Positions 3,188 to 47,226 of a DNA stretch of 64,000 nt are shown piece after piece; within the stretch, counting starts at the first letter, position 1; each line of letters begins with the position of its first letter. A program made the translations under genes and the position numbers. A model generated the notes under the pieces. The model searched no databases. It had not been told where the DNA came from and was given only the letters and a program-made list of their open reading frames with translations. The stretch comes from Spirochaetia bacterium. Lineage in GTDB: Bacteria; Spirochaetota; Spirochaetia; SZUA-6; Bin103. The DNA is taken from assembly GCA_965198005.1 (NCBI GenBank), contig CBDAOI010000003.1, positions 768,479 to 832,478 on the forward strand, in the 5' to 3' direction.

Positions 3188-3196
3188 AGGAGGCAT

Positions 3197-4099: not shown

Positions 4100-4130
4100 A
4101 GGGGGGGGATGCCGTCAGCCGTCAGCCGTC

Positions 4131-4158: not shown

Positions 4159-4362
4159 GAAGGTGACGTGGGACGACAACGGCCGACCCTCTTTATCTGG
4201 CAAGTGCCTTCTGGCGTTCTTCCCACTCGCGCCGCAAAACCCATCCAACCGCACTGTTTCCAGACCAGCGGGCGGTGCCTTCATAACCTAGTATTGATGA
4301 TTAACTGACGAACAATCTGCCATGCACAACTTCAGCACTTCTTCGATTCTCAAGGAGACACT

Positions 4363-7074: not shown

Positions 7075-7087
7075 CGGTGTGCGAATT

Positions 7088-18735: not shown

Positions 18736-18891
18736 CGTGTCGAGGGAGATGAATCCCGGGCCTTTATCAAGGAAATGCCGAATTCGGCATTACCTTGATT
18801 ATCCCGAAAAAAATGAAATGCCGAAGTTTGTCGGTAACTTGTTTCCACACAAACAGATAGCGTTGCAAACTTCGGCATAACATTGGGGCTC

Positions 18892-19920
18892 TTAGAGGCC
18901 GCACAGCCGCCTCAGACTCTCCTCATCCTTCCAGGCGGGCGTTTCGTCCGCCAGCCCGGGATCTGCTCGCTCGATGGCTTTGCGCAGCATCTCGGTATCC
19001 GCGGAAGCATAGATCTCAGTGGTAGTCACGCTTGCATGTCCCAGGAATTCCGCAATATAAGGAAGCGGCATCCCGGACTGATAGAGATGCATCGCACGGC
19101 TATGTCGAAACAGATGAGGGTGCACTCTCGGCGGCACCTCAGCACATGTCGTGCGCGCACCTTCGCCGTAGTTCTTGACCAATACGCTGATCGCATCGGT
19201 GGATAGCATGTGCGGCCTACCCGCGTGCAGGGAATAGAACAGCGGCACTTCGTGACGGTCGGCGGGGCCAGCATGGAATTGCCGTAGATATTCCTTCAGA
19301 TGGGCAACGGTCTTGTCCATGAGAGGAACACTTCTGGTTTTGTTGCCTTTGCCGGTCACCAGTACGAATGGAGTTCTTGCCTCCAGATGGAAGTCGGTGA
19401 CGCGCAAGTCGACCAGCTCTTGAACCCTGGCTCCTGTGTCGTATAGCAGAATCATGATCATCCTGTTCCGTCTCCCCTTTACGGTTGTCTTATCAGGTTG
19501 AGCGAGCACCGTCCTCAGGGCCGTCTGCGACAGGTAACCGACCGGCGTCCGGGCCATCTTCAGTAATGGAATCTTTTTCACCTCCTGGAACACACTATAG
19601 AGGCTGACGTCTTCATCCGCACAGTATCTGAGGAATGCCTTGAGAGCGGATAGTCTGAGATTGCAGGTTGCGACTCCGCACGGCCTCTGGCGCAGCCACT
19701 GAATGTACTTGATCACCGAGTCTCGCGTGAAGTGATCCCATGATACATTCGCGAACTTGATCCGATGTTGTGCTTCGAGGAAGTCGCAGTACATGCCTAT
19801 CGATCGTCTGTAGGAGTCAACGGTGTGCGCACTGCAACAGCGTATTTTCGGCAGGTGCACCGTGAGGTACTCACGTACACACTTCCAGAATTGTTGTCCC
19901 GATGTGCTATCCCTGGTCAT
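18892..19920 (-). CDS. ritC: RIT tyrosine recombinase C (third gene of the trio).
   Basis: C-terminal catalytic motifs: …HPHLFRHSRAMHLYQSGMPLPYIAEFLGHASVTTTEIYA (R…HxxR…Y). The start is probably MTRDSTSGQQFWK, overlapping the ritB stop by ~14 nt. The longer ORF from 20076 is spurious. Confidence 0.75.
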   Translation of the reverse strand: MTRDSTSGQQFWKCVREYLTVHLPKIRCCSAHTVDSYRRSIGMYCDFLEAQHRIKFANVSWDHFTRDSVIKYIQWLRQRPCGVATCNLRLSALKAFLRYCADEDVSLYSVFQEVKKIPLLKMARTPVGYLSQTALRTVLAQPDKTTVKGRRNRMIMILLYDTGARVQELVDLRVTDFHLEARTPFVLVTGKGNKTRSVPLMDKTVAHLKEYLRQFHAGPADRHEVPLFYSLHAGRPHMLSTDAISVLVKNYGEGARTTCAEVPPRVHPHLFRHSRAMHLYQSGMPLPYIAEFLGHASVTTTEIYASADTEMLRKAIERADPGLADETPAWKDEESLRRLCGL

Positions 19921-20875
19921 GGTCCACCTCCGGAAGAATGGCCTCAGTGGCGCGCACCTTGGCCGCGAATGTAGCGAAGAACTCGGGAACCAGGTGAAGG
20001 TAGTAATCGGTACTTGCCAGGCTGGCGTGTCCCATGTACCTGCTGAGATAGGGGAGCATGGCGTTGACCTCAACACCGGTCGCGATCCACCGGTTCAGAT
20101 TGCTGAGCGCAAAGTGGTGCCTGAAGTCATACGCACGCGGTCGGTTGCCGCATCCCGCTCCCAGGCCCGCCGCCTTCCAGATGCGGTTGAATACTGCTGC
20201 TACGCTGCCGCCGCTGTAGCAATCCGATCTCGTTGTCGGGAAAAAGTAGATTCTCCCGGGATATATCACGGACACTCGTGCGGCATATCGACGGAGCAGA
20301 CCCAGAACGTCGGCCGGCACCGGAAGTCTGCGACTTCTGCAACCCTTCGAACGCATGATGTCGATGTGGCTGGCTTCCAGATCAACCTGCTCAACGCGCA
20401 GCGTTCTTGCCTCACCGGTCCTCAGACCACAGCAATACAGGAGGCGGAAGAATACCGGCAGGACCAGATGTCGCGCCTGCGCCGTCCCATGGGACTGGAG
20501 CTTGTCGCAGGCGCCGAAGAATGCCGTAATCTCCTGGTGAGTAAAGAAATGAGGCACGTACCTAGCGGCGGCACGGATGCCGGCTGAGGGAAGCACGAAG
20601 GCATCTGCAACGCCGATCGACTGCATATACTTGCCAAGTTCACGGATCGGCGATATCCGGATACGATGCCCTGCCAGATTTTCTCCGTCCTTGGCTTTCG
20701 CCCAACCGTGGACCAACTCTCTGCCGAGGGATTGGAATGCGGGATGCCGGGCTGCGTATCTGTCGAAATCATGGAGATAGAACTCAGCGCTCTCATAGGA
20801 GTAGCCAACGGCGCGCTTGGTCGCGACCAGTCCCGAGATAAAGGGTGCAAACAGGCTTGAGTATGCAGTATTCAT
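19907..20875 (-). CDS. ritB: RIT tyrosine recombinase B.
   Basis: …YDFRHHFALSNLNRWIATGVEVNAMLPYLSRYMGHASLASTDYYLH is a catalytic C-terminus. The likely start MNTAYSSLF gives an ATGA overlap with the ritA stop. Confidence 0.75.
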   Translation of the reverse strand: MNTAYSSLFAPFISGLVATKRAVGYSYESAEFYLHDFDRYAARHPAFQSLGRELVHGWAKAKDGENLAGHRIRISPIRELGKYMQSIGVADAFVLPSAGIRAAARYVPHFFTHQEITAFFGACDKLQSHGTAQARHLVLPVFFRLLYCCGLRTGEARTLRVEQVDLEASHIDIMRSKGCRSRRLPVPADVLGLLRRYAARVSVIYPGRIYFFPTTRSDCYSGGSVAAVFNRIWKAAGLGAGCGNRPRAYDFRHHFALSNLNRWIATGVEVNAMLPYLSRYMGHASLASTDYYLHLVPEFFATFAAKVRATEAILPEVDHDQG

Positions 20876-22107
20876 GACAGGCCTGCGCAGTTCACGGGAA
20901 TCTTGGCGAGGTCCAACGCACACTCCCTCATGCGCTGTTGGTCGGTCGCCAAGTAGACGTCGGTCGACTCTTTGTGGGCGTGTCCAAGCATGGTCGAAAT
21001 GGTAGTGACCGGGACCCCCTTGGAGAGCATCCTGGAGGCCGCAGAGTGACGCAGCACATGGAGCCCTTTGCGTTCGCTACCAACCCTTATCCCGGCTTGG
21101 AGGAAGGCTCGCCGAAGCACTGCATAACAGGCCGCATGGCCTGACAGAACGGTGAATGGGGCTAGACAACGAAGGAATACATATGAAGTAGCCGTTGTTG
21201 GACGCTCATTGAGCAGGTAAGCGGAGAGCGCATTGCCAACATCCGCGATCAGCGGGATCTTGAAGGCGATTCCGGTCTTTGACTGGGCGATTGTGATGGT
21301 GTCATTGATCCAGTCGATATCTGTGAGTTTGATCCTCAGGATGTCTACGGAACGCAATCCGGTTCGCAAGGCCAACAGGATGATGGCCTTATCCCGAAGC
21401 CGGAGTTGGCCGTTCTGCAGCACCTTTTCCAGTGCATCGTTTTCGTGGTCCAAAAGGATCGGTATGATTGGCCTGTTTCTGACACAGCGTGAAGGGACTG
21501 CCAATAGCAGCCGTTCTTCGGTTTCTGCGAATCTGAGAAACGAGCGGATGTTCGAGGCAACGGTACGAATACTGGTGGGCCGGTATGTGGCGAGCAGATG
21601 CTGGAAGAAAGCCGGTACCATAGCGGCGCTGGCGAGCGCCAGCGAAGTGCAGTCGTGGTCCTCCAGGAACAACAGGAATTGGCGGACTGCGCTGGCACAT
21701 GATTGTATCGTATTCGCGCTTTTGTTTGTGGCTGCAAGCTCGTCCATGAACCTCTCATGCAGGAGCAGCAATTCTCTCGACTTGGGCATCGGCTGGCAGT
21801 CGAATGTGTACGTGGTCCACCTGATTGCTCCGTTGGCGACGTATTCTTGCAGTATCAACGATGCTCGTCTGAGATGGTTTCGTCTGCCACGTCCGATTGC
21901 GCCCGCCTTGTGCTGTTCCTCTAGGTCATGCAGGAAACTTTGGATCAGACTGTCGCAGAAACGTTCGACGTTGCGCGCGGCTGCGTACTGCTTGAGCCGC
22001 CTATATGTTTGTCGATAGTGGTTGATCGTTATCGGGTCAAGGCCGAACTTTCCGATCTCCTGAAGAACGCTCTCGACAAGATCGTCCAACAATAGGTTGT
22101 CGTGCAT
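20872..22107 (-). CDS. ritA: RIT tyrosine recombinase A (largest, 411 aa).
   Basis: …LHVLRHSAASRMLSKGVPVTTISTMLGHAHKESTDVYLA is a catalytic C-terminus. It is first in the trio and lies directly inside IR-R. Confidence 0.75.
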   Translation of the reverse strand: MHDNLLLDDLVESVLQEIGKFGLDPITINHYRQTYRRLKQYAAARNVERFCDSLIQSFLHDLEEQHKAGAIGRGRRNHLRRASLILQEYVANGAIRWTTYTFDCQPMPKSRELLLLHERFMDELAATNKSANTIQSCASAVRQFLLFLEDHDCTSLALASAAMVPAFFQHLLATYRPTSIRTVASNIRSFLRFAETEERLLLAVPSRCVRNRPIIPILLDHENDALEKVLQNGQLRLRDKAIILLALRTGLRSVDILRIKLTDIDWINDTITIAQSKTGIAFKIPLIADVGNALSAYLLNERPTTATSYVFLRCLAPFTVLSGHAACYAVLRRAFLQAGIRVGSERKGLHVLRHSAASRMLSKGVPVTTISTMLGHAHKESTDVYLATDQQRMRECALDLAKIPVNCAGLS

Positions 22108-22183
22108 TGTGCACCTCCCTGATGATGTCCAGATGGATGTCTGGCGCTCTCATCATAGAAGGGGCCTTGCCCATCGGCCAATA

Positions 22184-22960
22184 TTATGCCGAAGTTTGCA
22201 ACGCTATCTGTTTGTGTGGAAACAAGTTACCATCAAACTTCGGCATTTCATTTTTTTCGGGATAATCAAGGAAGAACAAATCAGCCAAGCCGTGCCGTAT
22301 GACCAGCGCCCAGAGAGCGCGCAGGAACAGCTCGCTGGACTCCGCGGTGCCCACCAGCACTCCCAGGCCGTAGCGCGTGGCATCGTCAATCAGGAACAAG
22401 GCGACCCGGCGCAGACGTGCGGCGCCGGCGCGGAAATGCTTGCCGTCAGCGAGCACGCACTGCATGCGCTGCGCATAGCGCCAGCGCCGCATGTCCCCCT
22501 CACGCTTGTGCGGTCGTTGGCGCGTCGGCAGCCCCATCCGCCGGCAGGCGCGCCACACGGTGGTGCGATCGATCTTGGCGTCGACCGGGATGATGCCGAG
22601 CTCCCGCGCGCGGCGCACCAGTTCCGGCACCGAGGCGCGCGCATCACGCTGCTTCTCGGTGCGCAGAAAGGTGACCAGTTTGGGACTCAGCGCCAGTGAG
22701 GTCGCGATGCGGGTGCGGCTCTGCGGCGTCAGGGCAGCGAGGCTGCCGGCGGCCCAGGCAGCGCGCCAGCGTTGCAAGCTGCGTACGCTGACCCGCACCG
22801 GGCGCCCGTCCAGGTCCACGCGGTCGGTGCCGGCAACGCGGCGTACGGCGGCGCCTGCGGGCCAGCCGCGCACCACCAGGGCCTCGACCTCGGCGACCAC
22901 CAGGTAGCGCTGCAGCGCGGTGGTCGAGACCGGTAGCGGGGGACGATCTGAATCATTCAT
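22184..22960 (-). pseudogene. tniA: N-terminal part (HTH plus start of the DDE core) of the tniA transposase interrupted by the RIT element.
   Basis: …RVALFLIDDATRYGLGVLVGT… is the first catalytic-D region. The frame then reads into RIT IR-R (…DYPEKNEMPKF…). The start ATG overlaps the stop of orf312 (ATGA at 22957-22960). Confidence 0.7.
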
Positions 22961-33109: not shown

Positions 33110-33173
33110 GGGGGAAATGGGAATGACAAAAGAGGGTGGCAATAACGGGGGAAAGTGAAATGAGGTGTGTTAC

Positions 33174-34175: not shown

Positions 34176-34193
34176 AGGGGGGAAACCGGAAAT

Positions 34194-35126
34194 ATGAGTG
34201 ATTCCATAGGGATACCACCAGCAGTAAGTGAGCCAAAGAGACGAACCGGGCCGACCTATTTCTTTATCAGGCTGTGGAGGGAGAAGCCACTGGGTACTGT
34301 CAGCGGGATTATCATATTGATATTGATTCTGGTGGCTATCTTCGCCGATGTTCTGGCTCCTTATGGCTTTCTTGAAATACACCTGGCAGACCGGCTGCAG
34401 GGCTCATCAGCCCGGTATCTGCTGGGTACCGACTACTTGGGGCGAGACTTCTTGAGCCGCCTTATCTACGGGGCTCGCATTTCGTTACTGGTCGGTCTGG
34501 CAGCGACCGCTCTCAATGTTGTGGTCGCTACCCTGATAGGCGGCACTTCAGGATTCCTTGGTGGTAAACTGGACCTGGCTGTGCAGAGATTTGTCGATGC
34601 CTGGATGTGTTTCCCGGGACTGCTCCTGTTGTTAACCATAATGTCCATAGTGGGGCGGGGTGTGCCACAGATAATAGTGGTCCTGGGGATATCAGGAGGC
34701 ATTGGCGGCTCAAGAGTAATCCGAGGCGCCGTTATCGGCATTAAAGAGAATGTGTATTTTCAGGCGGCGGAGTCGTTTGGCTCTTCAAAATGGAGAACAC
34801 TTGCCCGACATGTCGTGCCCAATATTATGCCTGTCGTAATCATCATATTCTCGATAAGCATAGGAGGCGTAATCCTGAGTATTGCTTCTCTGAGCTTCCT
34901 CGGACACGGTCTGCCTTTCGAGATTCCTGAGTGGGGAGGCCTGCTCAGCAGAGAAGGGCGTCAGTACATGGAGATGGCACCACACCTGGGTCTCTGGCCT
35001 GGTCTTTGCCTGACTATTACCGTTTACAGTCTAAACATGTTCGGCGACGCGGTGAGGGACCTGCTCGACCCGCGGCTGCGGGGTGGTGGGGGACGCCTGG
35101 GAGCCGATGCCGCCAGGTCGGTCTAA
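34194..35126 (+). CDS. DppC-type ABC transporter permease.
   Basis: It is collinear with 3197-4099. Confidence 0.85.
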   Translation: MSDSIGIPPAVSEPKRRTGPTYFFIRLWREKPLGTVSGIIILILILVAIFADVLAPYGFLEIHLADRLQGSSARYLLGTDYLGRDFLSRLIYGARISLLVGLAATALNVVVATLIGGTSGFLGGKLDLAVQRFVDAWMCFPGLLLLLTIMSIVGRGVPQIIVVLGISGGIGGSRVIRGAVIGIKENVYFQAAESFGSSKWRTLARHVVPNIMPVVIIIFSISIGGVILSIASLSFLGHGLPFEIPEWGGLLSREGRQYMEMAPHLGLWPGLCLTITVYSLNMFGDAVRDLLDPRLRGGGGRLGADAARSV

Positions 35127-35222
35127 TCGGGTCTAATCGCGCCCGAGCGGGATGCGCGGCCGCCGTCGGAGCAGGTCGCCAAACTACAATCGAAGTGTCG
35201 AAGTGAATGACCCTAAGGAGAC

Positions 35223-37940
35223 ATGGTGACCCATGCCCACGTACTACCCTTCGATGCCCCTGCTGACGCGGCCTCTGCCGACCTCGATTCCGTCGGCGGC
35301 AAGGGGCTGTCGTTAGCACGACTGACGGCCGCGGGATTCGCAGTCCCGGCAGGCTTTACAGTCACGACCGCCGCGTACCGGCAGTTCGTTTCTGACGACG
35401 ACCTTCAGCAGGCCATCATCGATCTGGCAAAACCGGAACTGGTGGGCACAGCGGTGTCTTTCGATTCCGCCTCGCAACGTATCCAGTCGTTGTTTGCCAA
35501 AACCGATCTGAGTGATGCGCTGCAGGGGCAGATCGCGGCGGCCTATGCCGCCCTGGGCGACGGCGAACCACCGGTTGCGGTGCGCTCCTCGGCCAACGCG
35601 GAAGACCTGCCGGATCTGTCGTTCGCGGGGCAGCAGGACACCTATCTCAACATACGCGGTAGCGATGCGGTGTTCGAGGCGGTACGCGACTGTTGGGCGT
35701 CTCTGTGGACCGCACGGGCCATCAGTTACCGGCACGAGCATGCCATCGCCCAGGAGGCAGTTGCCATGGCGGTGGTGGTGCAGATGATGGTGCCCTCGGA
35801 AGTCTCCGGCATCCTCTTTACTGCCAACCCCGCCACCGGGGAGCGGTCCGAGATCATCGTCAATGCCAGCTTTGGGCTGGGCGAGGCGATTGTCGGCGGC
35901 GAGATTACCCCCGATACCTACATCATCGATCGGGACACGTTGGCAGTCCGGGAGACCATCCTCGGCAGCAAGGAGCACATGCTGGTGTCCGCTGCAGGCC
36001 AGGGTACCGACACCCGGGAGTTGAGCGCAGCGGAGCGGGACCAGTCGTCGCTGGCGGAGCCGGTGTTGCGGGAACTGGCCCAACTCGCCATCGCCGTGGA
36101 GCGGCACTTCGGCCAGCCCCAGGATATCGAGTGGGCAGTCGTCAACCGGACACTGTCGCTGCTGCAGTCGCGCCCGATTACCAACCTGCCTACGGCACCG
36201 CTGAAGGAGGTCCGCTGGGAGAAGCCCGACATGCCGGATTGGGTCCCGGAAAATCCACTGCTGCGAAAAAACCTGGTGGAGCATATCCCGGGTCCGGTCT
36301 CGCCGCTGTTCGAAGATCTCTACCTGAAGGATGCGGTGGGCGGTCGAGCGGCCAACGGTAATCATTACGCTGTCAATGGTTATGCGTACTGGACGCTGGG
36401 TACGCCCCCAGGTGTGGAACCGATAACTTTCGGCGTGAGCCCCGGGTCTGCGACCGAACTGACCTCTACTATCGCGAATATGAAGCTCTATATCTATAAG
36501 ACGCCGCCGGTAAACGCAGTAAGGGCTACGCCTCCTGTGGGCAACCATATCTACAGTACTAGCAAATGGGCCAAGGTTTACGCCGAGCGGTATGATTCGT
36601 GGCGCAAGGAAACGTTGCCCGCGTACCTGGCCGTGATTGATGAGTGGCAGCAGGTGGACCCGCAGGCAGCATCGGATGTGGCACTGCTGGATGGCATGTG
36701 TGCCCTGGCAAGAGCGGATGGTGAGACCTGGTGGTCGCCCTCAATGAGACTGGAATCGATGGTCAGCCGTGTCGGCACGGTGTGGGTCATGAATATGCTG
36801 CGGCGTGCCGAAATCATATTCCATGATTTTCTGCAGAAAGCGGCCCCGGGGAAGGGGTTTAGCAGCGGCCAGTTCCTCAGTGGCCTGCGCTCGATCTCCA
36901 TGGAAGCCCAGGACGAGATCTCCGATATTGCCGAACTCATCCGGGCAGATGAGGGACTCCTTGAGCTCGTGCTGACGACTCCCGCACAACGGCTGCTACC
37001 CGCGTTGCGTGAGCGCTCAGAGGCAGAGTTGACCGTTCAGGCGATCGATCAGCATCTGGAGCGCTACGGGCATCAGATCACTACGCTCGACTTCGCCGAA
37101 CCAACGCTTGCGGAAGACCCCTTGCCGGTGATGTTGAACCTGAAGGCAGTGGTCCAGGACACCGACCACGACCCGGCCGCCACGCAGATCGACCTCGCCA
37201 GGCGACGTCAGGCGGCCCTGAGGGAGGCGAAGCAGGCCTTCAGCGACGAAGACTGGCGGGAATTGTGCGAGTTCCTCTGGGTCATGAAGCGCGCCTATCC
37301 TGATCGCGAACAGGCGCTGTTTTACCTGGGGGCCGGATGGCCGACGCTGCGGCGGCTCGCACTCGAACTGGGGCGCCGTCTGGTCGAGGCCGGCACCCTC
37401 ACCCAGCCGGACGATCTCTTCTACCTGTGGAGAGCAGAGCTGGAAGAGGCCATCGCGGCGCGCCAGGCGGGTCAGGCGCTGCCGGAACTCAAGGAACGTG
37501 TCGCCGAACAGCGCGAACTGCAGCAGGCGCGCCTGCGGCTGGTGCCACCGAACGCGGTGCCACCGGAAGAAGGTGTCGGGCCTGGCTGGGGCAAGACCGC
37601 CAACGACGCGGACAGCGACAGCTTAAACGGCAACGCCTGCAGTCCCGGCCAGATCACCGCACGCGCCAGCCTCGTCATGTCCCCGGCCGATTTTGCGAAG
37701 ATGCAACCCGGCACCATCCTGGTGTGCCCGATGACCACTCCCGCCTGGACGCAGCTGTTCTCCCAGGCCAGGGGTCTGGTGACCGATATCGGCAGCATCC
37801 TCACCCATGGCTCGATCGTGGCCCGTGAGTACAACATCCCCGCCGTGCTCGGACTCGGGATTGCCACCAAGAGGATCAAGCACGGGCAGATGATCCGTGT
37901 GGATGGCGACAACGGGGTGGTCGCTCTCCTCGACGAGTGA
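35223..37940 (+). CDS. PEP-utilising enzyme family (Rph/PEP-synthase-like) protein, copy B.
   Basis: It is 905 aa and ~90% identical to 4363-7074. It carries the same N-terminal and C-terminal motifs. Confidence 0.8.
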   Translation: MVTHAHVLPFDAPADAASADLDSVGGKGLSLARLTAAGFAVPAGFTVTTAAYRQFVSDDDLQQAIIDLAKPELVGTAVSFDSASQRIQSLFAKTDLSDALQGQIAAAYAALGDGEPPVAVRSSANAEDLPDLSFAGQQDTYLNIRGSDAVFEAVRDCWASLWTARAISYRHEHAIAQEAVAMAVVVQMMVPSEVSGILFTANPATGERSEIIVNASFGLGEAIVGGEITPDTYIIDRDTLAVRETILGSKEHMLVSAAGQGTDTRELSAAERDQSSLAEPVLRELAQLAIAVERHFGQPQDIEWAVVNRTLSLLQSRPITNLPTAPLKEVRWEKPDMPDWVPENPLLRKNLVEHIPGPVSPLFEDLYLKDAVGGRAANGNHYAVNGYAYWTLGTPPGVEPITFGVSPGSATELTSTIANMKLYIYKTPPVNAVRATPPVGNHIYSTSKWAKVYAERYDSWRKETLPAYLAVIDEWQQVDPQAASDVALLDGMCALARADGETWWSPSMRLESMVSRVGTVWVMNMLRRAEIIFHDFLQKAAPGKGFSSGQFLSGLRSISMEAQDEISDIAELIRADEGLLELVLTTPAQRLLPALRERSEAELTVQAIDQHLERYGHQITTLDFAEPTLAEDPLPVMLNLKAVVQDTDHDPAATQIDLARRRQAALREAKQAFSDEDWRELCEFLWVMKRAYPDREQALFYLGAGWPTLRRLALELGRRLVEAGTLTQPDDLFYLWRAELEEAIAARQAGQALPELKERVAEQRELQQARLRLVPPNAVPPEEGVGPGWGKTANDADSDSLNGNACSPGQITARASLVMSPADFAKMQPGTILVCPMTTPAWTQLFSQARGLVTDIGSILTHGSIVAREYNIPAVLGLGIATKRIKHGQMIRVDGDNGVVALLDE

Positions 37941-37953
37941 CGGTGGGCCATTA

Positions 37954-38532
37954 ATGAAGATTCTGGTCAAGAACGACGATGGTATTGATTCGCCCGGCAT
38001 CCGGGCTCTCGCCGAAGCGATGAGCCGGGTCGAGGAGGTGCTCATCGTGGCACCGGACCAGGAGCAGAGTGGCGTTGGCACCGCCATATCCTTTCATAAC
38101 GGCCTTGCTGCTGCGAAACGAGACACTGCCATCGAGGGGGGGCGCGCATATGCGGTCAGTGGCACACCGAGCGATTGTGTGATCCTTGGCCTCGGGCCAC
38201 TGGCCGACGGGACTATCGATCTGGTCGTGTCCGGCATCAACGCGGGTTGCAACGTCGGCAACGGTGTCCTGGGATCGGGGACCACCATGGCCACCCGAGT
38301 GGCTCACGCCGGCGGTGCCAGGATCCCGTCAATTGCCATCTCGCTGAGCCTACATGGGCCAAAGGATCACCGAGAGCCGCTCTTCCACCTTGCTACCACG
38401 GTCTCGGAGTTGCTGGCGCGCAGTATGGCAGAGGGAGAAATACCGGCCGGCACTACGCTCAACGTGAACGTCCCCAGTGTCCCCAGCGGAGAGATCCGCG
38501 GCGTCGCCGTCACCAGAGTTACTGGCGATTGA
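37954..38532 (+). pseudogene. surE: surE copy B, frameshifted and truncated after residue ~190.
   Basis: It is identical in layout to surE A up to …IRGVAVTR. A deletion relative to copy A then shifts the frame (A reads …PSPVGYWMWRTEQDGDGLYYNKL; B reads …VTGD*). The downstream out-of-frame ORF still encodes …RTEQDGDGLYHNKLSAIAADHPDI. Confidence 0.7.
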
Positions 38533-38764
38533 GAACCGAACAGGACGGCGATGGTCTTTACCACAACAAGCTCTCCGCAATCGCAGCGGACCATCCCGAC
38601 ATCGTAGAGGGGACCGATGTCTGGGCTCTGAATAGGGGGCTCATCTGTTTCCAGCCAGTCGCTGTTTCCAAACCGTGCCAAGCAGGATTGCCAGCGCGTG
38701 CCAGCGTGTGATGCTGGTGTCCGCCAGCGGCGAACGCCAGCGGTGCCGGCTGTCGCGGTTTAGT

Positions 38765-39561
38765 TTAGTCGTGGAGTTCATCGGTAACGATGTTGGTGGA
38801 GTCGATGATGCTGATGTCGTTGACGACGGCGTGGAGGATGGAACGATAGCAGACGGCGTTGACCAAGCGCGGCACGCCGCCGGCGTGGCGGTGAATGTCA
38901 GCTTTGGCATCATCGGCGAAGATCGAGGCAGGGCGGCCACAGCGGACGGTGTGGTGGTCGATGTAGCGACAGGTCTCCTCCAGAGCCATGGCCGGCATGT
39001 GATAGGAGATACGGATGCGCTGGCGCAAGGAAGCGAAGGAAACATATCTGAGCAACTCGCGCAGCTCGGGTTGGCCGGCGAGGACGAAGGTGATGGAGTT
39101 TTTGGTGTCGAAGGCAAAGTTGACCATGTTCTTGATGGCCGCCAGGGCGGTGGGGGCGAGGTCCTGGGCATCGTCGAGGATAATCAGTGGTTTCTTGGTC
39201 TGCTCGGGGATGGTCTTGAAGAACAGCTGCCTGGCCTGGCCGGCGAAGAAGGGCGGGTCGATCTTCATCTCATTGAGGATTGCCTTGTAGAGCTGGGCTT
39301 CCGAGAGGCCGGCGCCGCGGACATAGAGGGGGCGGTAGCGGTTGCCGTCGAGTTCGCTAACGAAAGCGGCGAGGGCGACCGACTTGCCGGAGCCGATGGG
39401 GCCGGTGAGGAGCAGGAGATCCTCGTCAGCAACCCCGAAGGAAAGGCGGGAGAGCGCCTCCTGATGGGCGGCGGAGGGGAAGGTATCGGCAGGGCCGAGG
39501 TGTTTGCCGAACGGCAGCCGAGAAAAGCCGAAGAAGGCGAGGACTTGATCATGCATCTGCA
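38765..39561 (-). CDS. Second, divergent TniB/ExeA-like AAA_22 ATPase.
   Basis: Motifs: LLLLTGPIGSGKSVAL (Walker A), LIILDDAQDL (Walker B), VLAGQPEL. The likely start is MQMHDQVLAFFG. The long N-terminal extension of the ORF track is GC-rich run-on. Confidence 0.65.
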
Positions 39562-40310
39562 TCGTGGTGCTCCTGGTCGTTGGTACGGAACTGAGCGAAC
39601 GAAGTCTGGTTGCGGTCGCGGAGCTGGGCGTGGTGCTGCTCGCGCAGGCGGGTGAAGTAGTCACGCGCGGCGGCCGACACCTCAGGCGGCTTGGCGGGGG
39701 ACTCCTCGGGGACCGCCGGCACTTGTGTGGAGACCTGTTTGGAAGCGCTGGTGGTCTCCAGCCGGCCGCCGCCGGGGACGTAGATGGCCAGCTGGGCGAG
39801 GTCGTAGGGGTCGAAGCGGACCTCGACGACGCTGCCATGAGGAACGGCGGTGACAGGGTATTGGTTGCCGTGCAGCTTGATCCTGCCGTACTTGCTGACG
39901 GTGCGCCGTTCGCGCCACAGGAACAGGGCGTTGAAGGTCTCCAGATCGGTGATGCGGCGGTGGTCGGCGGGCAGCCCGTCGCGGAAACGTGCATCGGGAC
40001 TCTGGCCGGTGGCTGAGTGGACGCGGACGTTGTATTCGAGATCCATCCAGGCCCAGAAGGCGGAGTTCAGTTCATCGAGAGTACGCATCCCGGCGACTTG
40101 AGCCTCGCGTTGGAACTGGTTCTTGATGATCTTGTTGGCGGCCTCGACCTTGCCCTTGCAATAACTTTGATAGGGCGGGTGGCGCACTCGTTTGACCTGT
40201 AACTCGACCAGGATGGCGAGCATGTGGCGTGAGATGTAAACTTTTCCGTTGTCGACATAGCACCGAGCCGGCACGCCGTAGCGCAGAACGCAATAGCGGA
40301 AGCTGTCCAT
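39549..40310 (-). pseudogene. C-terminal fragment of a second Mu/TniA-like DDE transposase. The N-terminus is absent.
   Basis: …YVDNGKVYISRHM…HPPYQSYCKGKVEAANK is the rve-core C-terminus. There is no upstream coding continuation beyond 40310. Confidence 0.6.
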
Positions 40311-40789
40311 CAGGGCGGGCAGCTTCTCGTCGAAATAGTACTTGCCGAACAGGATTTTGCGGGAGAAGTCGTTGTCAGCGCCCGCGCTCTGGTAGTGGAA
40401 ACTGGATAGAATTCTCGCTTTGCTGTAGGTGAGACTGAGCAGAGAGAAGAAGGGAGACCGGGAATCAGTGGTTGGACCCCACCCGGTCTCCCCTCAACCA
40501 GTACGATACTCATACTTGATATAGCCCAGGAAAGCTACCACTTCGCTGAGCTCCGAGATAGCTGGCAGCGCGTACTCCAGGGGCTGGGGTGTCCGGCGTG
40601 CGGCAGCACCCGATTGGGGCATCACAGCAGCTACGAGAAGTACCTGTACGAGCAGCCGCTAGCGATTCTGCGGCTGCGCTGCTGGGGGTGTGGGCGCACC
40701 CATGCCGTGATCCCCTCCTGGTCGCTGCCGGACACCTCGGTGGGTACCGCAGAGGTAGAGCGCTACCTGATAGATCGCGAGCGCGGCGC

Positions 40790-40914
40790 CAGCCGCCCCC
40801 GATGAGGCCGACAGCTTGAGCGGACCAGAGGTCGCGCACCAACCACTGGGGGGCGTCGCGCTGGGGATCGATAGCATGGACGGGAACGGTGGGCAGCGCA
40901 GTGGTCATGGCCAT
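40790..40914 (-). pseudogene. N-terminal ~40-aa relic of the AAA_25 ATPase.
   Basis: MAMTTALPTVPVHAIDPQRDAPQWLVRDLWSAQAVGLIGG matches MAMTKPLPTVPVHAIDPQSDTPQWLVHDLWTAAAVGAIGG at 16332-17273 and then diverges. Confidence 0.7.
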
Positions 40915-41291
40915 AACGACTTGCGGGCCGCGATCACGTCACCGGTACTGACGGTGGTGGCGGAGGTCTTGGCGGCGTACTGCAGCGCCGCCAGGGCCAA
41001 GCGGTCGATGGCGCGCAGGTTGCCGCGGCTCATTTCGAAGATGGTTTCCTGTGCATCGCCGTCGAAGGGATTGGTGCGAGCGCCGGCGAGGGTGCAGCGA
41101 TGCTCGACGTAGGCGCGGGTCTCATCCCGGGAGAGCAGGCGCAACTCGGCGTAATGCGCCAAGCGGTGCGCGATGGCGGCTTGGTCAGGACGCCGCAGGA
41201 GCTGTCTGAGGGGTGGCTGACCGGCCAGCACCAGGGACACGACCAGGCGACTGTCCATTTCGAAGTTCGTGAGATATGCCGCTAGCGGCAT
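40905..41291 (-). pseudogene. tniB: C-terminal 128-aa fragment of tniB (paralogue of 17264-18067).
   Basis: …LTNFEMDSRLVVSLVLAGQP…AHRLAHYAELRLLSRDET…AARKSLWP is collinear with the first tniB C-terminus. The Walker A and B region is missing. Confidence 0.7.
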
Positions 41292-41401
41292 ATTGACCCT
41301 ATGCCGACCGCCCGATTATGCCGCGTGGTGGAGCACGGGCGGGTATTCCGTGTGTTCCAGCAGGTGCAACGGCGGTGAACGCGCCGTGAGGGTCGGCATA
41401 A

Positions 41402-42392
41402 TTACAGGGCTTCCAGGAAGGCGAGGAGCGCGTCGGGGGGACGATAGCGCCCGGGAGTGGTGTGAGCCGGAGCAGTTTTCGCCAGGGCGCGTTCCTTGAG
41501 TCCGAGGTGGGCATGGAGATAGACCTGTGTCGTCTGGACGCTCTCGTGGCCGAGCCACAGTGCGATCACGGAAGTGTCAATGCCCGCCTCCAGGAGCCGC
41601 ATCGCCGCAGTGTGGCGCAGTACATGTGGTGAGACCCTTTTGGCGCCCAGGGACGGGCACGCGAGCGCGGCGACGCGGGTGTGCTTGGCCAGCAGACGCT
41701 CGACCGCATCACGGCTGAGTGGTCGACTGAGCTGGCTGGGAAACAGCGCGGCGTGCGGGTCACCAGCGAGTTCGCGGAGCCACACTTGGAGCACTGCTAC
41801 AGTCTGGACGGTGAGCGGGGTGACGCGATCTTTGCGTCCTTTGCCGTGGCAGCGTACGTGAGCGCCACGGTCCAGACGGACGTCACAGCCGCGCAGGCCG
41901 ACCAGTTCGGAAACGCGCAGGCCGGTCTGCACAGCCAGGACAAGCAACGCATGGTCGCGCCGACCGATGCGCGTAGTACGATCGGGGGCTGCGAGCAACG
42001 CATCGACCTCAGTTGGGGTCAGAAAGCTCACTTCGGTGCGATGCTGTCGCTTCGCCGGGATCGCGAGCACCCGCTGGATCATGTGGGCGTGATCGGGGTG
42101 ACGCAGCTCGGCGAAGCGAAACAGGGAATGAATCGCGACCAGACGGGCGTTCCTGGTGCGCGCGCTGTTGCCACGGTCATGTTCGAGATGATTGAGGAAC
42201 GCGTCGATGACGGCCACGTCCAGATCGATGAGAAGCAACTGCGACGGCGGCTTGCCGAGCCGCGCAGTAGTGAACGCGAGCAGCAGCCGAAAGGTGTCAC
42301 GGTAGGCAGCTACCGTGTGCGGGCTGGCCTGACGTTCGCCGAGCAAGCGCTGGGTGAAGAACGTCTGGAGAGTAGGTGCCAGGGTGCTCATG
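41402..42392 (-). CDS. Tyrosine recombinase, RitC-like.
   Basis: …VSPHVLRHTAAMRLLEAGIDTSVIALWLGHESVQTTQVYLHA is a catalytic C-terminus. Its architecture matches ritC at 18892-19920. The probable start is MSTLAPTLQ. The flanking region 41283-41401 carries TATGCCGA repeats and the palindrome ATATGCCGCTAGCGGCATAT. Confidence 0.7.
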
Positions 42393-42867
42393 TCATTTCT
42401 CCCCAGGCCTGTTCGACACCGAGTCGCTGGGCGGCCACCGTCAGCAACTCGGGAACGGCCTGCAGATACCAATAGGTGGAAGCCGGATGGCTATGGCCGA
42501 GATACGCCGCCAGCGCTGGCAGCTTGGCAGCCACGTCGACGCCATCGCGATACCAGCCGAGCAGCGTGTTGATGGCGAAGCTGTGACGTAACCCATGCAG
42601 CCGGGGACGACATGATAGCGAGCGTGGTTGGATGCCGACCTCGTTCGCCAAGTCCACAAACACCTTGCGGACGACGGGATAGAGCAGCGGGGTTCCAGCG
42701 GCTGAGACAAAGAAGCTTGCTGCCTTGGGCTTCGGACAGAGCCGATCTCGCTCCTGCGTGTAGGTAGCCAGAGCGTCGCTGGTCGAAGGATGCAACGGCA
42801 GGAGACGGGACTTGTTGAACTTGCTCTGACGTACGTTCAGCAGGCGGTGACCGCTCCAGCCTTGCAT
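42388..42867 (-). pseudogene. C-terminal catalytic fragment of a RitB-like tyrosine recombinase.
   Basis: …LHGLRHSFAINTLLGWYRDGVDVAAKLPALAAYLGHSHPASTYWYLQAVPE parallels the ritB C-terminus. The N-terminal half is absent. Confidence 0.65.
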
Positions 42868-43277
42868 CGCACCAGGCTTCGGCGCTAACGTACTCCTCGC
42901 TGGTGTGCCCCGATTGGTATCGAAGTTGCACCGGCCACGGCCCGGCGGGCCTGAGACCCGCGCGGGCCACTTTTCTCCTCGCTGGTTATGGATTATGCTC
43001 CCAAAGAGATAACCCGGTCAGGAGGGGTATCGGGAACCGTCCGCTGAGCCGTGTATTCTGCGGCCCCGGCACCTGTGAGAGTGCCCCTGCGTTTGTCGCT
43101 GCTGGTCGGCTGTACGCTGCCCGCGCAGAAGTCGTAGGCCGACAAATGATGGACCATGGTCATAATCCATGGCCGGCATCCGGGTACACCGGGCCACGCA
43201 CATGAGCCGATCCGCCGCCGCGTTAATCACGATGACCTCTGATCGCCTGAGGAACTGCTGGCGCGAACCCGACCGCG

Positions 43278-44921
43278 CTACGCGGCCGGAGCAGAGCGGT
43301 AGCTGGCACAGCGCGGGTCGCGCCGTCGGTTATGGACGGTGCAGCGCAAACGCAAATTGACCATGTCGTTATTGCCGCCCTGCGCCACCGGCACGATGTG
43401 GTCGATCTGCACCAGGTGGGTCGACCCGCAGGTCACGCCGGTGAGCGGGTCCTGGTAGCAGCAAGCCCCACCGTCCCTTCGCCACACCGCACGTCGCACC
43501 GCCTCTGGAATGTGCCGCCTCCCCCGGCGCGCGCGGGCGGATTCGGGTGCTGGCGGGCGCGACGCCGTGCGATCTCCGGACAGCCGCGCTCGCACACCGG
43601 AGTGCAACTCGGCGGCCGTCCGGGAAGGCCCCTTCCCTGCCCGCGGCGCCTGCTGGTTCTGCGCCGAACTCGGAGTGCCGCGGCGAACCTGCTCGCTTCC
43701 CGGGGTCGCTACTGTCTGCGCTTGCCGGTTCGGCGCCGAACCGCGGGCAGGTGCGACGCTGGAGTCGGCCGCAACAGGACCGGGCGCAGGAGAGCTGGCA
43801 GCGACCGAGCCGGCGTGGCGCGGAGTCCGAGCACCACTCCGATCCGCTGCCCGCGGCGCTTGTTGGTCCTGCGCCGAACTGCCACCGCGTGCGCCCGCGG
43901 TGCCGGCGGCGACCGGACCGCGTGTGGGAAAGCCGCCATCAACCGAGCCGGCGTGGCGCGAAGTCCGATCGCCACTCCGGTCCGGGACCCGCGGCGCCTG
44001 TTGGTTCTGCGCCGAACTGCCGGCAAGTGCGACGCCGGGGCCGGCGGCGACCGGAGCGGGTGCGGGGCTGCCAGCAACCGGACCCGCGGCAACCGAACTG
44101 CGGGCAGCCGCGGTCGCGGGCACCCCCTCGCCAGGCACACTAGTGGCGCAGGTCGACGAGCCGGCCTCGGGCGTAGCCGCGCCCACCGCACCTCCGGCGA
44201 CCCGGCGTTTGCCGGTGCCGCCGCGTTCCTGCTCGCACGTTTCGGCGGGCCGCGTCGGCACCGCCGCCCCCCGCTTGGCCCGGCCCCGCTCCCGCATCGG
44301 GTCGTACTTCCGCTCCGCCTGCTGCAGCAGGTAGGCGAGCAGTTGCCCGGTGGTGAAGCGCGGGTTCACGTGCGACAGCCAGCCCTTCAGCTTGGCGATG
44401 GTGTCTATACTGCTCTGGTCCAGGATCACCCGCACCGCGTAGCGGCCGCCGCCGAGGGCGCGCTGCTGCTCTCGCGGCAGGCCCAGCTCGGGCTCCAGTT
44501 CCGCCAGCAGCTTCTCGGTCTCACGGGCCGACTTGTTGGCGACCAGATCGACCAGTTCGACCTTCTGGTCCCGGGTCCATGCCGGTGGTGGTTCCGTCGC
44601 GGGCGGCGGCGGCGCAGACTCGCGGGCCGCACCCGGGGGCGGCGACGCAGCGGCCGACGCCAACGCCGCCGGGGATGCGGCCGCGGCCTTCCCGGCTGCG
44701 GCCGCGGTTTCCGCCTCCGGCGACGTCGCCGGCCCTGGCGCCAGCGCTGCGGCAGGCGCGACTTCCTGGGTTCCCGCGACTTCCGTCTGCGCCGGGTGCA
44801 CCCCTCCAGCCGACGACTCCCCGGCGCCCACACTTACAGCGCCCGTCGCCGACACGCTCGCCGACTCACGGACGGCCTTACGGGCCGCTTTCCGCGCACG
44901 CTTTTCAATCGCGTTCTGCAA
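43278..44921 (-). CDS. HNH endonuclease domain protein with an internal low-complexity tandem-repeat linker.
   Basis: C-terminus: …CCYQDPLTGVTCGSTHLVQIDHIVPVAQGGNNDMVNLRLRCTVHN is an HNH motif. The middle carries ~3 copies of a ~50-aa unit (SSAQNQQAPRxxDRSGxRTxRHAGSV…). A structured N-terminal region sits around KLKGWLSHVNPRFTTGQLLAYLLQ. Confidence 0.6.
   Translation of the reverse strand: MQNAIEKRARKAARKAVRESASVSATGAVSVGAGESSAGGVHPAQTEVAGTQEVAPAAALAPGPATSPEAETAAAAGKAAAASPAALASAAASPPPGAARESAPPPPATEPPPAWTRDQKVELVDLVANKSARETEKLLAELEPELGLPREQQRALGGGRYAVRVILDQSSIDTIAKLKGWLSHVNPRFTTGQLLAYLLQQAERKYDPMRERGRAKRGAAVPTRPAETCEQERGGTGKRRVAGGAVGAATPEAGSSTCATSVPGEGVPATAAARSSVAAGPVAGSPAPAPVAAGPGVALAGSSAQNQQAPRVPDRSGDRTSRHAGSVDGGFPTRGPVAAGTAGARGGSSAQDQQAPRAADRSGARTPRHAGSVAASSPAPGPVAADSSVAPARGSAPNRQAQTVATPGSEQVRRGTPSSAQNQQAPRAGKGPSRTAAELHSGVRARLSGDRTASRPPAPESARARRGRRHIPEAVRRAVWRRDGGACCYQDPLTGVTCGSTHLVQIDHIVPVAQGGNNDMVNLRLRCTVHNRRRDPRCASYRSAPAA
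43590..44060. repeat. ~150-bp coding tandem repeats (about 3 copies) within the HNH gene.
   Basis: Units such as CTGTTGGTTCTGCGCCGAACT…GCCGGCGTGGCGCG…CACTCCG recur in register on the DNA. Confidence 0.6.
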
Positions 44922-45320: not shown

Positions 45321-47226
45321 GCCAGGCTAACTGGCATATGACAGAGGGTGAAAGTCCCTCGGAACGAAGGAGCAGCCAATCCACGTTTCTCCGCGAGCCG
45401 TGCGTTGGCACCTGCGAGGGTGCAGGCGAAGCGTCGGCAGCGGTGCGTGCGGGCAGAGTTATGGAGCGCCGCAAAATACGACATCTGGAGTGCCGAGACT
45501 CTGTACTCGGTCGAAGGCAACACCGGTCGAGCCAGTATGGTGAGGATCGACCGGGCTCCACGGCGTCGAAGAACTCAGGCACGTGCGTACGTCATATACC
45601 GGGACCTGGGAGGTCTTCGGGTCGTCCCGGCGAGTCGTCGCCGGGACCGCGGAGGGAAGGCGTGAGGCTGGACCAAAGATGAACGACCCGAAGGAGTCGG
45701 ACATGGGCATAGTAGCGGCGAAGCCGGCGAACAAGGGAGCGCAAGCGACTGCGGAGACGGTGGAGCGAAGGCCCATGACCAACGGGAATTCGCAAGGTCA
45801 AAGCACGGGCCGGACGCAGAGTCGGGCAACCGTGACACAGGCGGCCGAGCGGATACGGCAATTCGTAAAGAGAGAACCGCAGGAGAAACTCACTGCGCTG
45901 CTGCACCACGTGACGCCGGAAGCGCTGCGGGTGGCCTATTACGCGCTGAAGCGTGAAGCGGCCCCGGGGGTGGACGGGATGACGTGGCGGGAGTACGAGA
46001 CGGGGTTGGAAGTGCGCTTGCACGACCTGCACCGGAGAGTACACACAGGAGCGTACCGAGCGACCCCGGTACGGCGGGTCAACATCGACAAGCCGGACGG
46101 AGGCACACGACCGCTGGGGGTGGCCGCGCTGGAGGACAAGATCGTCCAGAAGGCCGTGGTGGATGTGATCCTGACACCGATCTATGAGGAGGAATTTCTC
46201 GGGATCAGCTATGGGTTTCGACCGGGGCGAGGGGCACACGATGCGTTGGACGCACTGGCCTACGCCATCGAACGGCGCAAAGTGAACTGGATATTGGACG
46301 CGGACATTCGCGGCTACTTCGATTCGATCTCGCGGGACTGGTTGATCAGATTCCTGGAGCATCGGATTGGAGATCGGCGGGTGCTGCGGCTGATAAAGAA
46401 GTGGCTGCGCGCTGGGGTACTGGAAGAAGGCCGACAGATCGACGCGGGGCGGGGTACAGCGCAAGGGTCGGTGATTTCACCGATGCTCGCGAATATATAC
46501 TTGCACTACGTGTTGGACCTGTGGGTCACCAAGAAGTGGCGGCCGCAGGAGGCGCGCGGAGACATGATCATAGTGCGCTACGCAGATGACTATGTCGCCG
46601 GGTTCGAGCATCGTGACGATGCGGAACGCTTCCTGCGGGAACTGAAGGAGCGATTCAGAGACTTCGAGCTGGAACTGAACGCCGACAAGACCCGACTCCT
46701 CGAGTTTGGACGGTATGCCGAAAGGAACCGCCGAGCACGTGGGGAAGGGCGACCGGAGACGTTCGACTTTCTGGGTTTCACGCATTATTGCAGGAAGGAC
46801 AGGAAAGGACGCTTCGGGCTGGGGCGGAAGCCAATTCGGAAGCGGATGAATCGTACGCTGAAGAGGATCAAGATCGAGCTCCGCAGACGAATGCATGATG
46901 ACGTGATGGAAACCGGGCGCTGGCTGGGACGGGTACTGCGCGGATGGCTCAACTACTACGCGGTACCCACCAGCTACCGCTACCTGCATCGATTCGTGTG
47001 GCGTCTGCGAGGAATCTGGGTAAAGATTCTACGCCGGAGGTCCCAGAAGGACCGATTCTCCTGGGCTTGGATGCTGGCAATCAGCATCGAGCTGTGGCCC
47101 CAACCCCGAATCGTACACCCATGGCCGGACCGGCGATTTGCCGTCAACCACCGAAGGTAGGAGCCGGATGGTTTAACGACCACGTCCGGATCTGTGCGGG
47201 GGGCGTCGGGTAACCGGCGTTCCTAC
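45320..47226 (+). mobile_element. Group II intron copy 2 (~1.9 kb, apparently full length) inserted in the permease relic.
   Basis: The same IEP as copy 1, domain V and a domain-VI-like region at 47163-47226, preceded by ~250 nt not shared with copy 1. Permease homology stops at ~45318. The exact 5' boundary is unresolved. No canonical GUGCG was seen at the junction. Confidence 0.6.
45775..47160 (+). CDS. Group II intron-encoded reverse transcriptase/maturase (intact).
   Basis: It has RT domains 0-7 (…LTALLHHVTPEALRVAYYALKREAAPGVDGMTWREYE…, YADDYV) plus a maturase X domain (…LRGWLNYYAVPTSYRYLHRFVW…). No endonuclease domain is present. The ORF can open upstream at a GTG (45583), but RT homology begins near MTNGNSQ. 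Confidence 0.8.
   Translation: MTNGNSQGQSTGRTQSRATVTQAAERIRQFVKREPQEKLTALLHHVTPEALRVAYYALKREAAPGVDGMTWREYETGLEVRLHDLHRRVHTGAYRATPVRRVNIDKPDGGTRPLGVAALEDKIVQKAVVDVILTPIYEEEFLGISYGFRPGRGAHDALDALAYAIERRKVNWILDADIRGYFDSISRDWLIRFLEHRIGDRRVLRLIKKWLRAGVLEEGRQIDAGRGTAQGSVISPMLANIYLHYVLDLWVTKKWRPQEARGDMIIVRYADDYVAGFEHRDDAERFLRELKERFRDFELELNADKTRLLEFGRYAERNRRARGEGRPETFDFLGFTHYCRKDRKGRFGLGRKPIRKRMNRTLKRIKIELRRRMHDDVMETGRWLGRVLRGWLNYYAVPTSYRYLHRFVWRLRGIWVKILRRRSQKDRFSWAWMLAISIELWPQPRIVHPWPDRRFAVNHRR

Follow-up and report, generated by a model that had tools for sequence, protein, structure and literature searches.

The DNA under study is a 64,000-nucleotide stretch from a Spirochaetia bacterium (contig CBDAOI010000003.1, positions 768,479 to 832,478; the window throughout), in which tyrosine recombinase genes of the recombinase-in-trio (RIT) type adjoin tni-type transposition genes at two loci. 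The subject here is the second of these, locus 2, whose recombinase and tni genes lie on the minus strand. Its recombinases are ritB' (42388..42849), the C-terminal 153 codons of a ritB gene (RitB residues 158-310) contained in an open reading frame (ORF) at 42388-42867 that Pfam recognises as the catalytic C-terminal half of a second tyrosine recombinase (E 7e-12), and ritC (41402..42391), which is intact, encodes 329 residues with Phage_int_SAM_1 and Phage_integrase domains (E 6e-37), and retains the residues R..K..HxxR..H..Y. The stop of ritB' and the start of ritC overlap by the 4 bp ATGA. Beyond ritC follow an inverted repeat, IR_R (41299..41402), which aligns to the inverted repeats (IRs) of intact relatives; a ritC-side junction (41268..41298) composed of spacer, palindrome and overlap; the last 122 codons of a tniB gene, tniB1 (40905..41273); and the first ~32 codons of an AAA_25 gene (40820..40914), a DNA match to 17179-17273 that is truncated at 40820. 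We refer to the element from which the recombinases and IR_R derive as RIT2. An ORF map and Pfam searches recovered all of the features described at locus 2 in the initial annotation, with small coordinate corrections. The fragments it placed at 40790-41291 as the last 128 residues of TniB and ~40 residues of AAA_25 are indeed there, but by DNA homology they amount to 122 and ~32 codons, respectively, at 40820-41273.

Both recombinases fall within subfamilies defined by the RIT trio. In reciprocal BLAST the product of 41402-42391 is closest to RitC of locus 1 (E 3e-38, versus 3e-12 for RitA and 2e-5 for RitB), and in BLASTP the product of 42388-42867 is closest to RitB of locus 1 (E 2.5e-14, against 1.5e-4); with the ATGA overlap, these assignments bear out the earlier description of a complete RitC-like recombinase and the C-terminal half of a RitB-like one. 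Short overlaps of 4-8 bp between rit genes (PMC3414803) are represented at ritB'/ritC, and of the flanking IRs, IR_R is present at 41299-41402 and IR_L is deleted. The complete ritA-ritB-ritC trio is lacking, only the C-terminal half of ritB and ritC being left, and what the window holds of RIT2 is a remnant and not a complete RIT member. Neither Pfam nor NCBIfam contains a RIT-specific model, and all rit proteins score on Xer-type models below the cut-offs. For comparison we use related loci labelled L003-L104, among which L011-L090 come from a survey of GTDB genomes, and a contig from a second sample, L002; RitA, RitB and RitC of L092 match RitA, RitB and RitC of locus 1, respectively. RitC of RIT2 has more than 8000 homologues, mostly of 329 residues, the nearest being 94% identical. 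RIT2 belongs to a very widespread lineage with a 329-residue RitC that is unrelated in sequence to the RIT of locus 1, RIT1.

Locus 1 has the order tniA-N / ritA, ritB, ritC / tniA-C, tniB (AAA_22), AAA_25. RIT1 (18793..22271, minus strand) is bounded by 94-bp IRs and lies inside tniA directly after the codon for the second catalytic Asp (FFLD|KGPGF), with an 18-bp palindrome, AATGCCGAATTCGGCATT, on the tniA-C side; the tniA reading frame is restored when RIT1 is removed in silico. In a self-comparison of the window the sole DNA match between the two loci pairs 17179-17632 with 40820-41273, without gaps, in the same orientation and at 89.6% identity over 454 bp. This alignment upholds the proposal that the tniB-C/AAA_25-N fragment is a diverged, collinear paralogue of the locus-1 genes. 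The encoded TniB C-termini are 89% identical over 122 residues and the AAA_25 N-termini 77.5% over 40 residues, DNA homology ending at 40820, at about codon 32, and the 4-codon tniB/AAA_25 overlap is kept at locus 2. For the tniB-C pair the synonymous divergence (dS) is 0.31 and its ratio to nonsynonymous divergence (dN/dS) is 0.16. These values are not those of simple decay after duplication, and the two copies of this transposon, Tn1, appear to be old and to have diverged under constraint. The recombinases behave quite differently, RitC being 32.6% and RitB 30% identical between loci, and the self-comparison detected no DNA similarity between the RIT1 and RIT2 regions or their IRs. Recombinases at 30-33% beside tniB at 89%, with unrelated IRs, do not fit the view that locus 2 derives by deletion from the tniA::RIT composite, nor does a composite older than the duplication and propagated as a unit account for RIT genes far more diverged than the tni genes that flank them.

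The ritC-side terminus of RIT2 provides a second line of evidence. Read on the minus strand after the ritC stop, a ~100-bp repeat with ATGCCG motifs ends in GGTCGGCATAG and is followed by GGTCA, ATATGCCGCTAGCGGCATAT, CTCACG and AACTTCGAAATGGAC. The tip of IR_R on the plus strand is CTATGCCGACC, with further ATGCCG motifs within the repeat; 41294-41298 is the 5-bp spacer GGTCA (minus strand), 41274-41293 a perfect 20-bp palindrome (ATATGCCGCTAGCGGCATAT), and 41268-41273 the target-side overlap CTCACG. After the palindrome tniB continues as CTCACG AAC TTC GAA ATG GAC, its first residues, LTNFEMD, corresponding to codon 146 of 267, and the uninterrupted tniB of locus 1 reads ..AGG GTC CTC ACG AAC TTC GAA ATG GAC, that is, ..GGGTC CTCACG AACTTCGAAATGGAC. 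No sequence has been deleted between the RIT2 terminus and tniB codon 146. The initial annotation had placed a loss of the tniA C-terminus and the tniB N-terminus between ritC and tniB, where an intact terminus instead abuts the tniB reading frame, and the implied common insertion point fails as well, RIT2 lying in tniB codon 146 and RIT1 in tniA at FFLD|KGPGF. The identical palindrome follows the IR in L004, L005, L006 and L010, whose RitC proteins are 94% identical to that of RIT2. The palindrome also explains the 128-residue ORF at 40905-41291, whose first six residues, MPLAAY, it encodes and whose remainder is the TniB C-terminus. The same ATG and MPLAAY are supplied by the palindrome at 9101-9673 of L004. 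Because the RIT2 palindrome provides an ATG, gene callers annotate C-terminal pieces of interrupted genes as separate ORFs beginning with MPLAAY, and the annotation of the 128-residue ORF is corrected to a tniB C-terminus with a start codon derived from a RIT. A scan of JGI metagenomes for the RIT2 palindrome returned four unrelated AT-rich palindromes and nothing useful. The possibility that the GGTC of the spacer was copied from 4 bp upstream of CTCACG in tniB1 was also considered; the match has a chance of about 1/256 and corresponds to no recurrent junction type, and we treat it as a coincidence.

The third line of evidence comes from relatives of RIT2. Compared with the remnant at 41299-42849, the L003-L010 RIT has 91% identity and the L092 RIT 86%. 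In the intact relatives, L003-L010 together with L091/L092 (RitC 92-94%), ritA, ritB and ritC encode 401, 310 and 329 residues with 4-bp overlaps, between inverted repeats of ~108 bp that begin with CTATGCCGACC. In L003 the RIT splits a tniB2-type AAA_22 gene into parts of 156 and 120 residues at ..KSMV|NFHFD with a 6-bp direct repeat, ATGGTC, and L007 has the same junction between tniB2-N and the RIT, its ritC-side flank being a rearranged piece of istA. In L091/L092 (RitC 92%) a third AAA_22 family, tniB3, is split at ..DDLRLLT|. The L003/L007 and L091/L092 sites correspond by homology to LRVLT|NFEMD in tniB1 of the window. The tniB1, tniB2 and tniB3 families are 27-30% identical to one another, and their RITs 86-94%. 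In L004, L005, L006 and L010 the RIT splits the IS21 gene istA at ..KVQF|NYHIE, with a ritC-side junction of IR, GAACTG, the same palindrome as in the window, CAGTTC and target. The right flanks of all of these sites, that in istA included, are alike (AACTTCGAAATGGAC, AACTTCCACTTCGAT, AACTTTGCCTTCGAC and AACTACCACATCGAG; AACTWC.A..T.GA). This likeness across four sites suggests that RIT2 may recognise its target at the DNA level. Two RIT2 sites in the window are empty, namely tniB1 of locus 1 and the ATGGTC of tniB2 at 39122-39127.

In sum, the mismatch in divergence, the intact terminus and the relatives inserted at the same codon argue for two independent, site-specific RIT insertions. We consider locus 2 to be the stranded remnant of a second RIT, RIT2, that inserted independently in tniB1 of a transposon copy diverged by about 10% and later suffered a deletion on its ritA side, and we assign this reading a probability of roughly 85%. 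A history of one inherited composite is thereby replaced by two independent hits by two different RITs, and the similar gene order at the two loci is convergent, each RIT having struck a transposition gene, tniA or tniB, in transposons of one kind. The interpretation that accompanied the initial annotation is thus supported in part, and its central claim of a composite is largely refuted.

The loss on the ritA side can be located by comparison with L092. RitB homology begins at 42849, residue 158, with 78% amino acid identity to residues 158-308 of L092 RitB. The adjoining 138 bp (42850..42987, minus strand) match L092 2444-2579 at 79.7% DNA identity, with 62% amino acid identity over 29 residues. 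The L092 transposon has the order orf207-tniA-tniB3::RIT, and 42850-42987 corresponds to the opening ~29 codons of orf207 together with the sequence upstream of them, so that ritB' is fused to the beginning of an orf207-like first gene. The ritB'/orf207-like junction shows GT(G) microhomology, and from these comparisons a single illegitimate deletion probably took IR_L, ritA, the N-terminal half of ritB and everything upstream. At the other end of the locus AAA_25 is cut short at 40820, where it meets part of a zinc-ribbon gene on the plus strand. For neither orf207 of L092 nor orf312 of locus 1 was a Pfam family found. The idea that orf207 is a DUF6431 gene was discarded, since it has no Pfam family and only plus-strand 40542-40808 has a sub-threshold match to DUF6431.

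RIT1 has a distribution that parallels that of RIT2. The locus-1 RitC is present on eight further contigs, with RIT1 elements 98.6-99.2% identical. They occupy two tniA families, tniA1 (in orf286/312-tniA-tniB-AAA_25) and tniA2 (an HTH_32 part, RIT1 and a Mu-transpos_C part, then AAA_22), which are unalignable and yet hold near-identical RIT1 copies. Insertion is always directly after the codon for the second catalytic Asp, at FFLD|KGPGF in tniA1 and CYVD|NGKVY in tniA2, and RIT1 is found in both orientations. The corresponding site in tniA2 of the window, CYVD|NGK at ~40252-40256, is empty. The comparative basis for regarding RITs as mobile units is therefore the presence of RIT2-type elements in tniB1, tniB2, tniB3 and istA, the presence of RIT1 in tniA1 and tniA2, and the empty sites in the window. 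In L092 the tniA gene (3179-4271) is itself split into a 256-residue N-terminal part and a 96-residue C-terminal part, with the break right after ..RRGVP; this lies at the expected DDE second-Asp motif, the RIT1-type target, and may mark a place once occupied by a RIT, as a footprint or through a deletion.

RIT1, RIT2 and about 40 of 58 surveyed loci share a junction layout in which target and overlap O1 are followed by the two IRs with the RIT body between them, a spacer, an 18-20-bp palindrome, and overlap O2 with the rest of the target. Each half of the palindrome looks like an IR tip (TTATGCC-6 bp-GGCATAA), and the spacer, 5-7 bp long, in most cases reads as O1 or O2 in reverse complement. 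A minority of copies, L003 among them, show simple 6-bp direct repeats and no palindrome junction. RITs combine long IRs and three recombinases with an extra, complete core-like site, consisting of IR tip, spacer and palindrome half, beside one end. In the four tniA1 copies the palindrome is always on the tniA-C side regardless of the direction of the rit genes; L008 is L004 with the RIT body flipped, and in L097/L103 the body is inverted relative to the window and L102, with identical flanks. A flipped body with the palindrome fixed on one side of the target indicates that the body inverts between two sites borne by the IRs. All four combinations of CTTGAT and CTCGAT as O1 and O2 are seen among tniA1 copies, the tniA2 site of L100 holds the tniA1-type CTTGAC, and L067/L068, in IS66, hold a foreign AAYCAC. 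This pattern points to strand exchange that may tolerate mismatches in the 5-7-bp overlap and bring donor sequence along, and the GGTCA(A) of the window would then record an earlier TTGACC site. Donor overlap carry-over has been described for Tn554 and SEs (PMC10214605). The 5-7-bp sequences beside RIT ends likewise may depart from the present target and agree with an earlier site, as with CTTGAC at a tniA2 site, AAYCAC in IS66 and GGTCA in the window. A mobilome study has suggested exonuclease-protected, possibly hairpin RIT intermediates (PMC5737581), with which a palindromic junction could be compatible. In some RIT copies (L091/L092, L099 and L007/L008) the two flanks are reverse complements of each other over at least 50 bp, and L099 has palindromes on both sides; a simple insertion model does not account for these inverted flank duplications.

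The sequence of events at locus 2 may then be outlined as follows. RIT2 would have entered tniB1 next to a recognised flank, its tyrosine recombinases exchanging strands over a 6-bp overlap. The overlap need not have matched that of the donor, and the spacer GGTCA(A) could have been brought from a prior site TTGACC, which also encodes Leu-Thr; RIT1 copies that move between tniA families appear to show the same overlap behaviour. A microhomology-associated deletion would subsequently have removed IR_L, ritA and ritB codons 1-157, leaving ritB' joined to codon ~29 of the gene that opens another tni-type transposon, and a separate break would have left AAA_25 ending at codon ~32, next to part of some other gene. 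The RIT2 remnant is presumably no longer mobile.

Several observations weigh against this account. The left, ritA-side junction, which would record direct integration into this copy of tniB, is lost. GGTCA and CTCACG are not reverse complements, whereas spacer and overlap are in the commonest form of the junction, and the right half of the junction could stem from an exchange between two copies of RIT2. The upstream fragment joined to ritB' is L092-like, resembling the first gene of a different type of transposon and not locus-1 orf312, and calls for a further rearrangement, or else an adjacent element, at the least. The target motif is drawn from four sites only, and no RIT has been shown to transpose in the laboratory (PMC10214605).

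Some of these points would be accommodated if RIT2 had never integrated at this position and two RIT2 copies of one genome, in an L092-like orf207-tniA-tniB3 transposon and in a Tn1-like tniB1, had recombined at their palindromic cores, which would have linked the body of the former to the tniB1-C flank of the latter, a separate deletion having fused orf207' to ritB'. An L092-like upstream fragment would be expected, GGTCA(A) as the reverse complement of TTGACC could represent the Leu-Thr codons of a tniB3-type site with the tniB1 CTCACG as the outer overlap, and rearrangements are common among the relatives, including body inversions, flank exchange in L007/L008/L010 and inverted flank duplications in L091/L092/L099. 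However, spacers that mismatch their targets also occur in apparently simple insertions (L067/L068, L097 and L100) and need no recombination to explain them, and neither a tniB site with TTGACC|AAC nor a reciprocal junction was present among all of the loci retrieved. We regard this history as unlikely, although it deserves more weight than descent from the locus-1 composite, which is highly improbable. In the latter scenario deletions would have stripped an old duplicate of tniA::RIT-tniB-AAA_25 of ritA, of the C-terminal part of tniA and of the N-terminal part of tniB. The shared order of ritB, ritC, tniB and AAA_25, the collinear tniB/AAA_25 fragment at 89.6%, and the same relative order of both loci inside a duplication of 2164-7791 and 33159-38644 speak for it. 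Against it stand the disparity between recombinases and tniB, the unrelated IRs, the complete RIT2 terminus abutting tniB, the intact members of the lineage that sit in tniB at that very codon, and the actual deletion, which is on the ritA side. An assembly chimera from collapsed repeats, conceivable for a metagenome assembly of a repeat-rich region with many RIT copies in the sample, is the least credible explanation, because the window contig is 2.07 Mb long at 14x and the second-sample contig L002 is 99.88% identical over 19.8 kb including the locus; the locus-2 arrangement is no assembly artefact.

The independent insertion of RIT1 and RIT2 in transposition genes has a counterpart in a wider set of loci. 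An alignment of 14 RitC sequences led to 80 loci (L011-L090) in GTDB genomes spread over many phyla, with identities of 59-93%; phyla with the RitC family include Actinomycetota, Chloroflexota, Acidobacteriota and Proteobacteria. RitC-family loci lie overwhelmingly inside genes of other mobile elements, including those of IS256, IS66, IS21, IS630 and IS4-like elements and genes of the rve/TniA and TniB-like types, with serine and tyrosine recombinases and group II intron reverse transcriptase/maturase/HNH genes as further interrupted types. Flank peptides were picked by eye, and 20 of them, a non-random sample, were checked with Pfam. Among these 20, the DDE transposase and ATPase matches were AAA_22 (TniB-like), Transposase_mut (IS256), DDE_Tnp_IS66 (two), rve/Mu-transpos_C, rve_3, DDE_3 and DDE_Tnp_1; the recombinase and intron matches were serine Recombinase (two), Phage_integrase (two), RVT_1/GIIM (three), Intron_maturas2/HNH and HNH; and the remainder were a C5 DNA methylase, a GNAT and one flank without a match. 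By eye, insertions recur in conserved motifs, among them ..VQRC|..HK.RN of IS256 (at least eight loci), the DDE second Asp, the YADD of reverse transcriptases and the HxLRH of recombinases. The bias suggests that RITs seek out transposition genes of other mobile DNA. Survivorship could contribute to it, and the identical RITs found in unrelated homologues argue for real targeting.

We tentatively propose, at somewhat less than even odds, that RITs are site-specific hunters of other mobile elements. Each lineage would have its own short DNA site in a conserved and often catalytic motif of a gene for a transposase, a transposition ATPase, a recombinase or a group II intron RT/HNH protein, would enter it by strand exchange over a mismatch-tolerant 5-7-bp overlap with donor overlap sequence taken along, and would retain at one end an extra core site (IR tip, spacer and palindrome half) that drives inversion of the body. 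If so, the two RITs in the window represent two hits and not an inherited composite. If the bias reflects targeting and not survivorship, RITs would naturally inactivate transposons and introns and also hitch-hike on them. Few bacterial mobile elements are as poorly understood as RITs, and the comparative set provides testable substrates in the form of filled and empty sites for two lineages, a common junction layout, evidence for inversion and carry-over, and the bias toward mobile genes. Locus 2 is ordinary debris of nested and truncated mobile elements, and the pattern of RIT targets and junctions is of greater interest than the locus itself.

The intact relatives resemble RIT elements as described by Van Houdt et al. 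in 2009 and 2012 (PMC3414803) in the ritA-ritB-ritC trio, the 4-bp overlaps, the flanking IRs and the near-identical copies per genome. The archetype IR is 34 bp long (PMC10214605), whereas the IRs of this lineage are ~80-108 bp, with one IR of RIT2 left in the window. In the RIT literature covered we found no description of a terminal palindrome with inverted spacer or of a preference for genes of other mobile elements. A direct precedent for tniA::RIT1 is the Tn6049-like transposon of Acidithiobacillus ferrooxidans, in which a RIT lies in a module of a Mu-like DDE transposase and an ExeA/GspA-like ATPase (PMC3414803); the copies there are almost identical, share one genomic location and are of uncertain mobility, and no insertion in an ATPase gene was reported. 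In contrast, RIT1 here occupies two unrelated tniA families and the RIT2 lineage three tniB families. The host transposons are like the tni module of Tn5053/Tn402 (TniA, TniB, TniQ) and like IS21 (IstA, IstB) in having a DDE transposase with rve and Mu C-terminal domains and an AAA+ ATPase gene immediately downstream. They are unlike Tn5053/Tn402 in that the ATPases are AAA_22 and not Pfam TniB, and that the third gene of Tn1 encodes AAA_25, not TniQ. Pfam TniB (PF05621) was not reported for tniB1 or tniB2 of the window at E<=0.01, and one relative scored E 0.048. The AAA_25 (RecA-like) ATPase gene at 16332-17273 (minus strand), third in the locus-1 transposon and overlapping tniB by 10 bp, takes the place at which Tn5053-type elements carry tniQ, and the tniA-tniB-AAA_25 trio is also found in L097, L102 and L103.

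Beside the Tn1 remnant lies a fragment of a different transposon, Tn2 (38646..40372, minus strand), in keeping with the distinct pair of TniB-like and 5'-truncated TniA-like genes noted earlier. It contains tniB2 (38765-39562, 265 residues, AAA_22 ATPase in Pfam) and a 5'-truncated tniA2 (39549 to ~40372, with an ORF at 39549-40310 and Mu-transpos_C in Pfam), both on the minus strand, and its homology to full-length relatives stops at 40372. In DNA identity it is 92-97% to L098/L100/L104, whose tniA2 holds RIT1, and 81-84% to L003/L007, whose tniB2 holds RIT2. Between Tn2 and the Tn1 remnant, the plus-strand N-terminal fragment of a zinc-ribbon gene (40542..40808), 3'-truncated at the AAA_25 junction, has a DUF6431 match (E 5e-5, 23.4 bits) under the 26.6-bit Pfam cut-off, and a GC-rich hairpin is located upstream of it at about 40455-40500.

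The duplication of 2164-7791 and 33159-38644 is a collinear segmental duplication at 83-88% DNA identity that comprises two ABC-transporter permease genes, a PPDK-like PEP-utilising enzyme and SurE. Its PPDK-like pair has a dS of 0.24 and a dN/dS of 0.29, and more diverged copies of the duplicated transporter genes occur elsewhere in the window. A similar dS (0.31 versus 0.24) would agree with the Tn1 fragment being part of this duplication, and the non-homologous flanks between the duplicated block and the fragment would speak against it. A group II intron is present at 45351-47230 (plus strand) with its 5' domains (Rfam group-II-D1D4-6, 169 bits), and further copies lie at 23996-25688 (plus strand) and 30451-30567 (minus strand); one is 97.6% identical, 5'-truncated and 100 bp from orf312 of locus 1, and the third is a short fragment. 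Finally, an Ala/Pro/Arg-rich ORF of 547 residues at 43278-44921 (minus strand) has a C-terminal HNH motif and ~138-bp tandem repeats at 43637-44088, and its strand is called differently by gene callers in the two samples.

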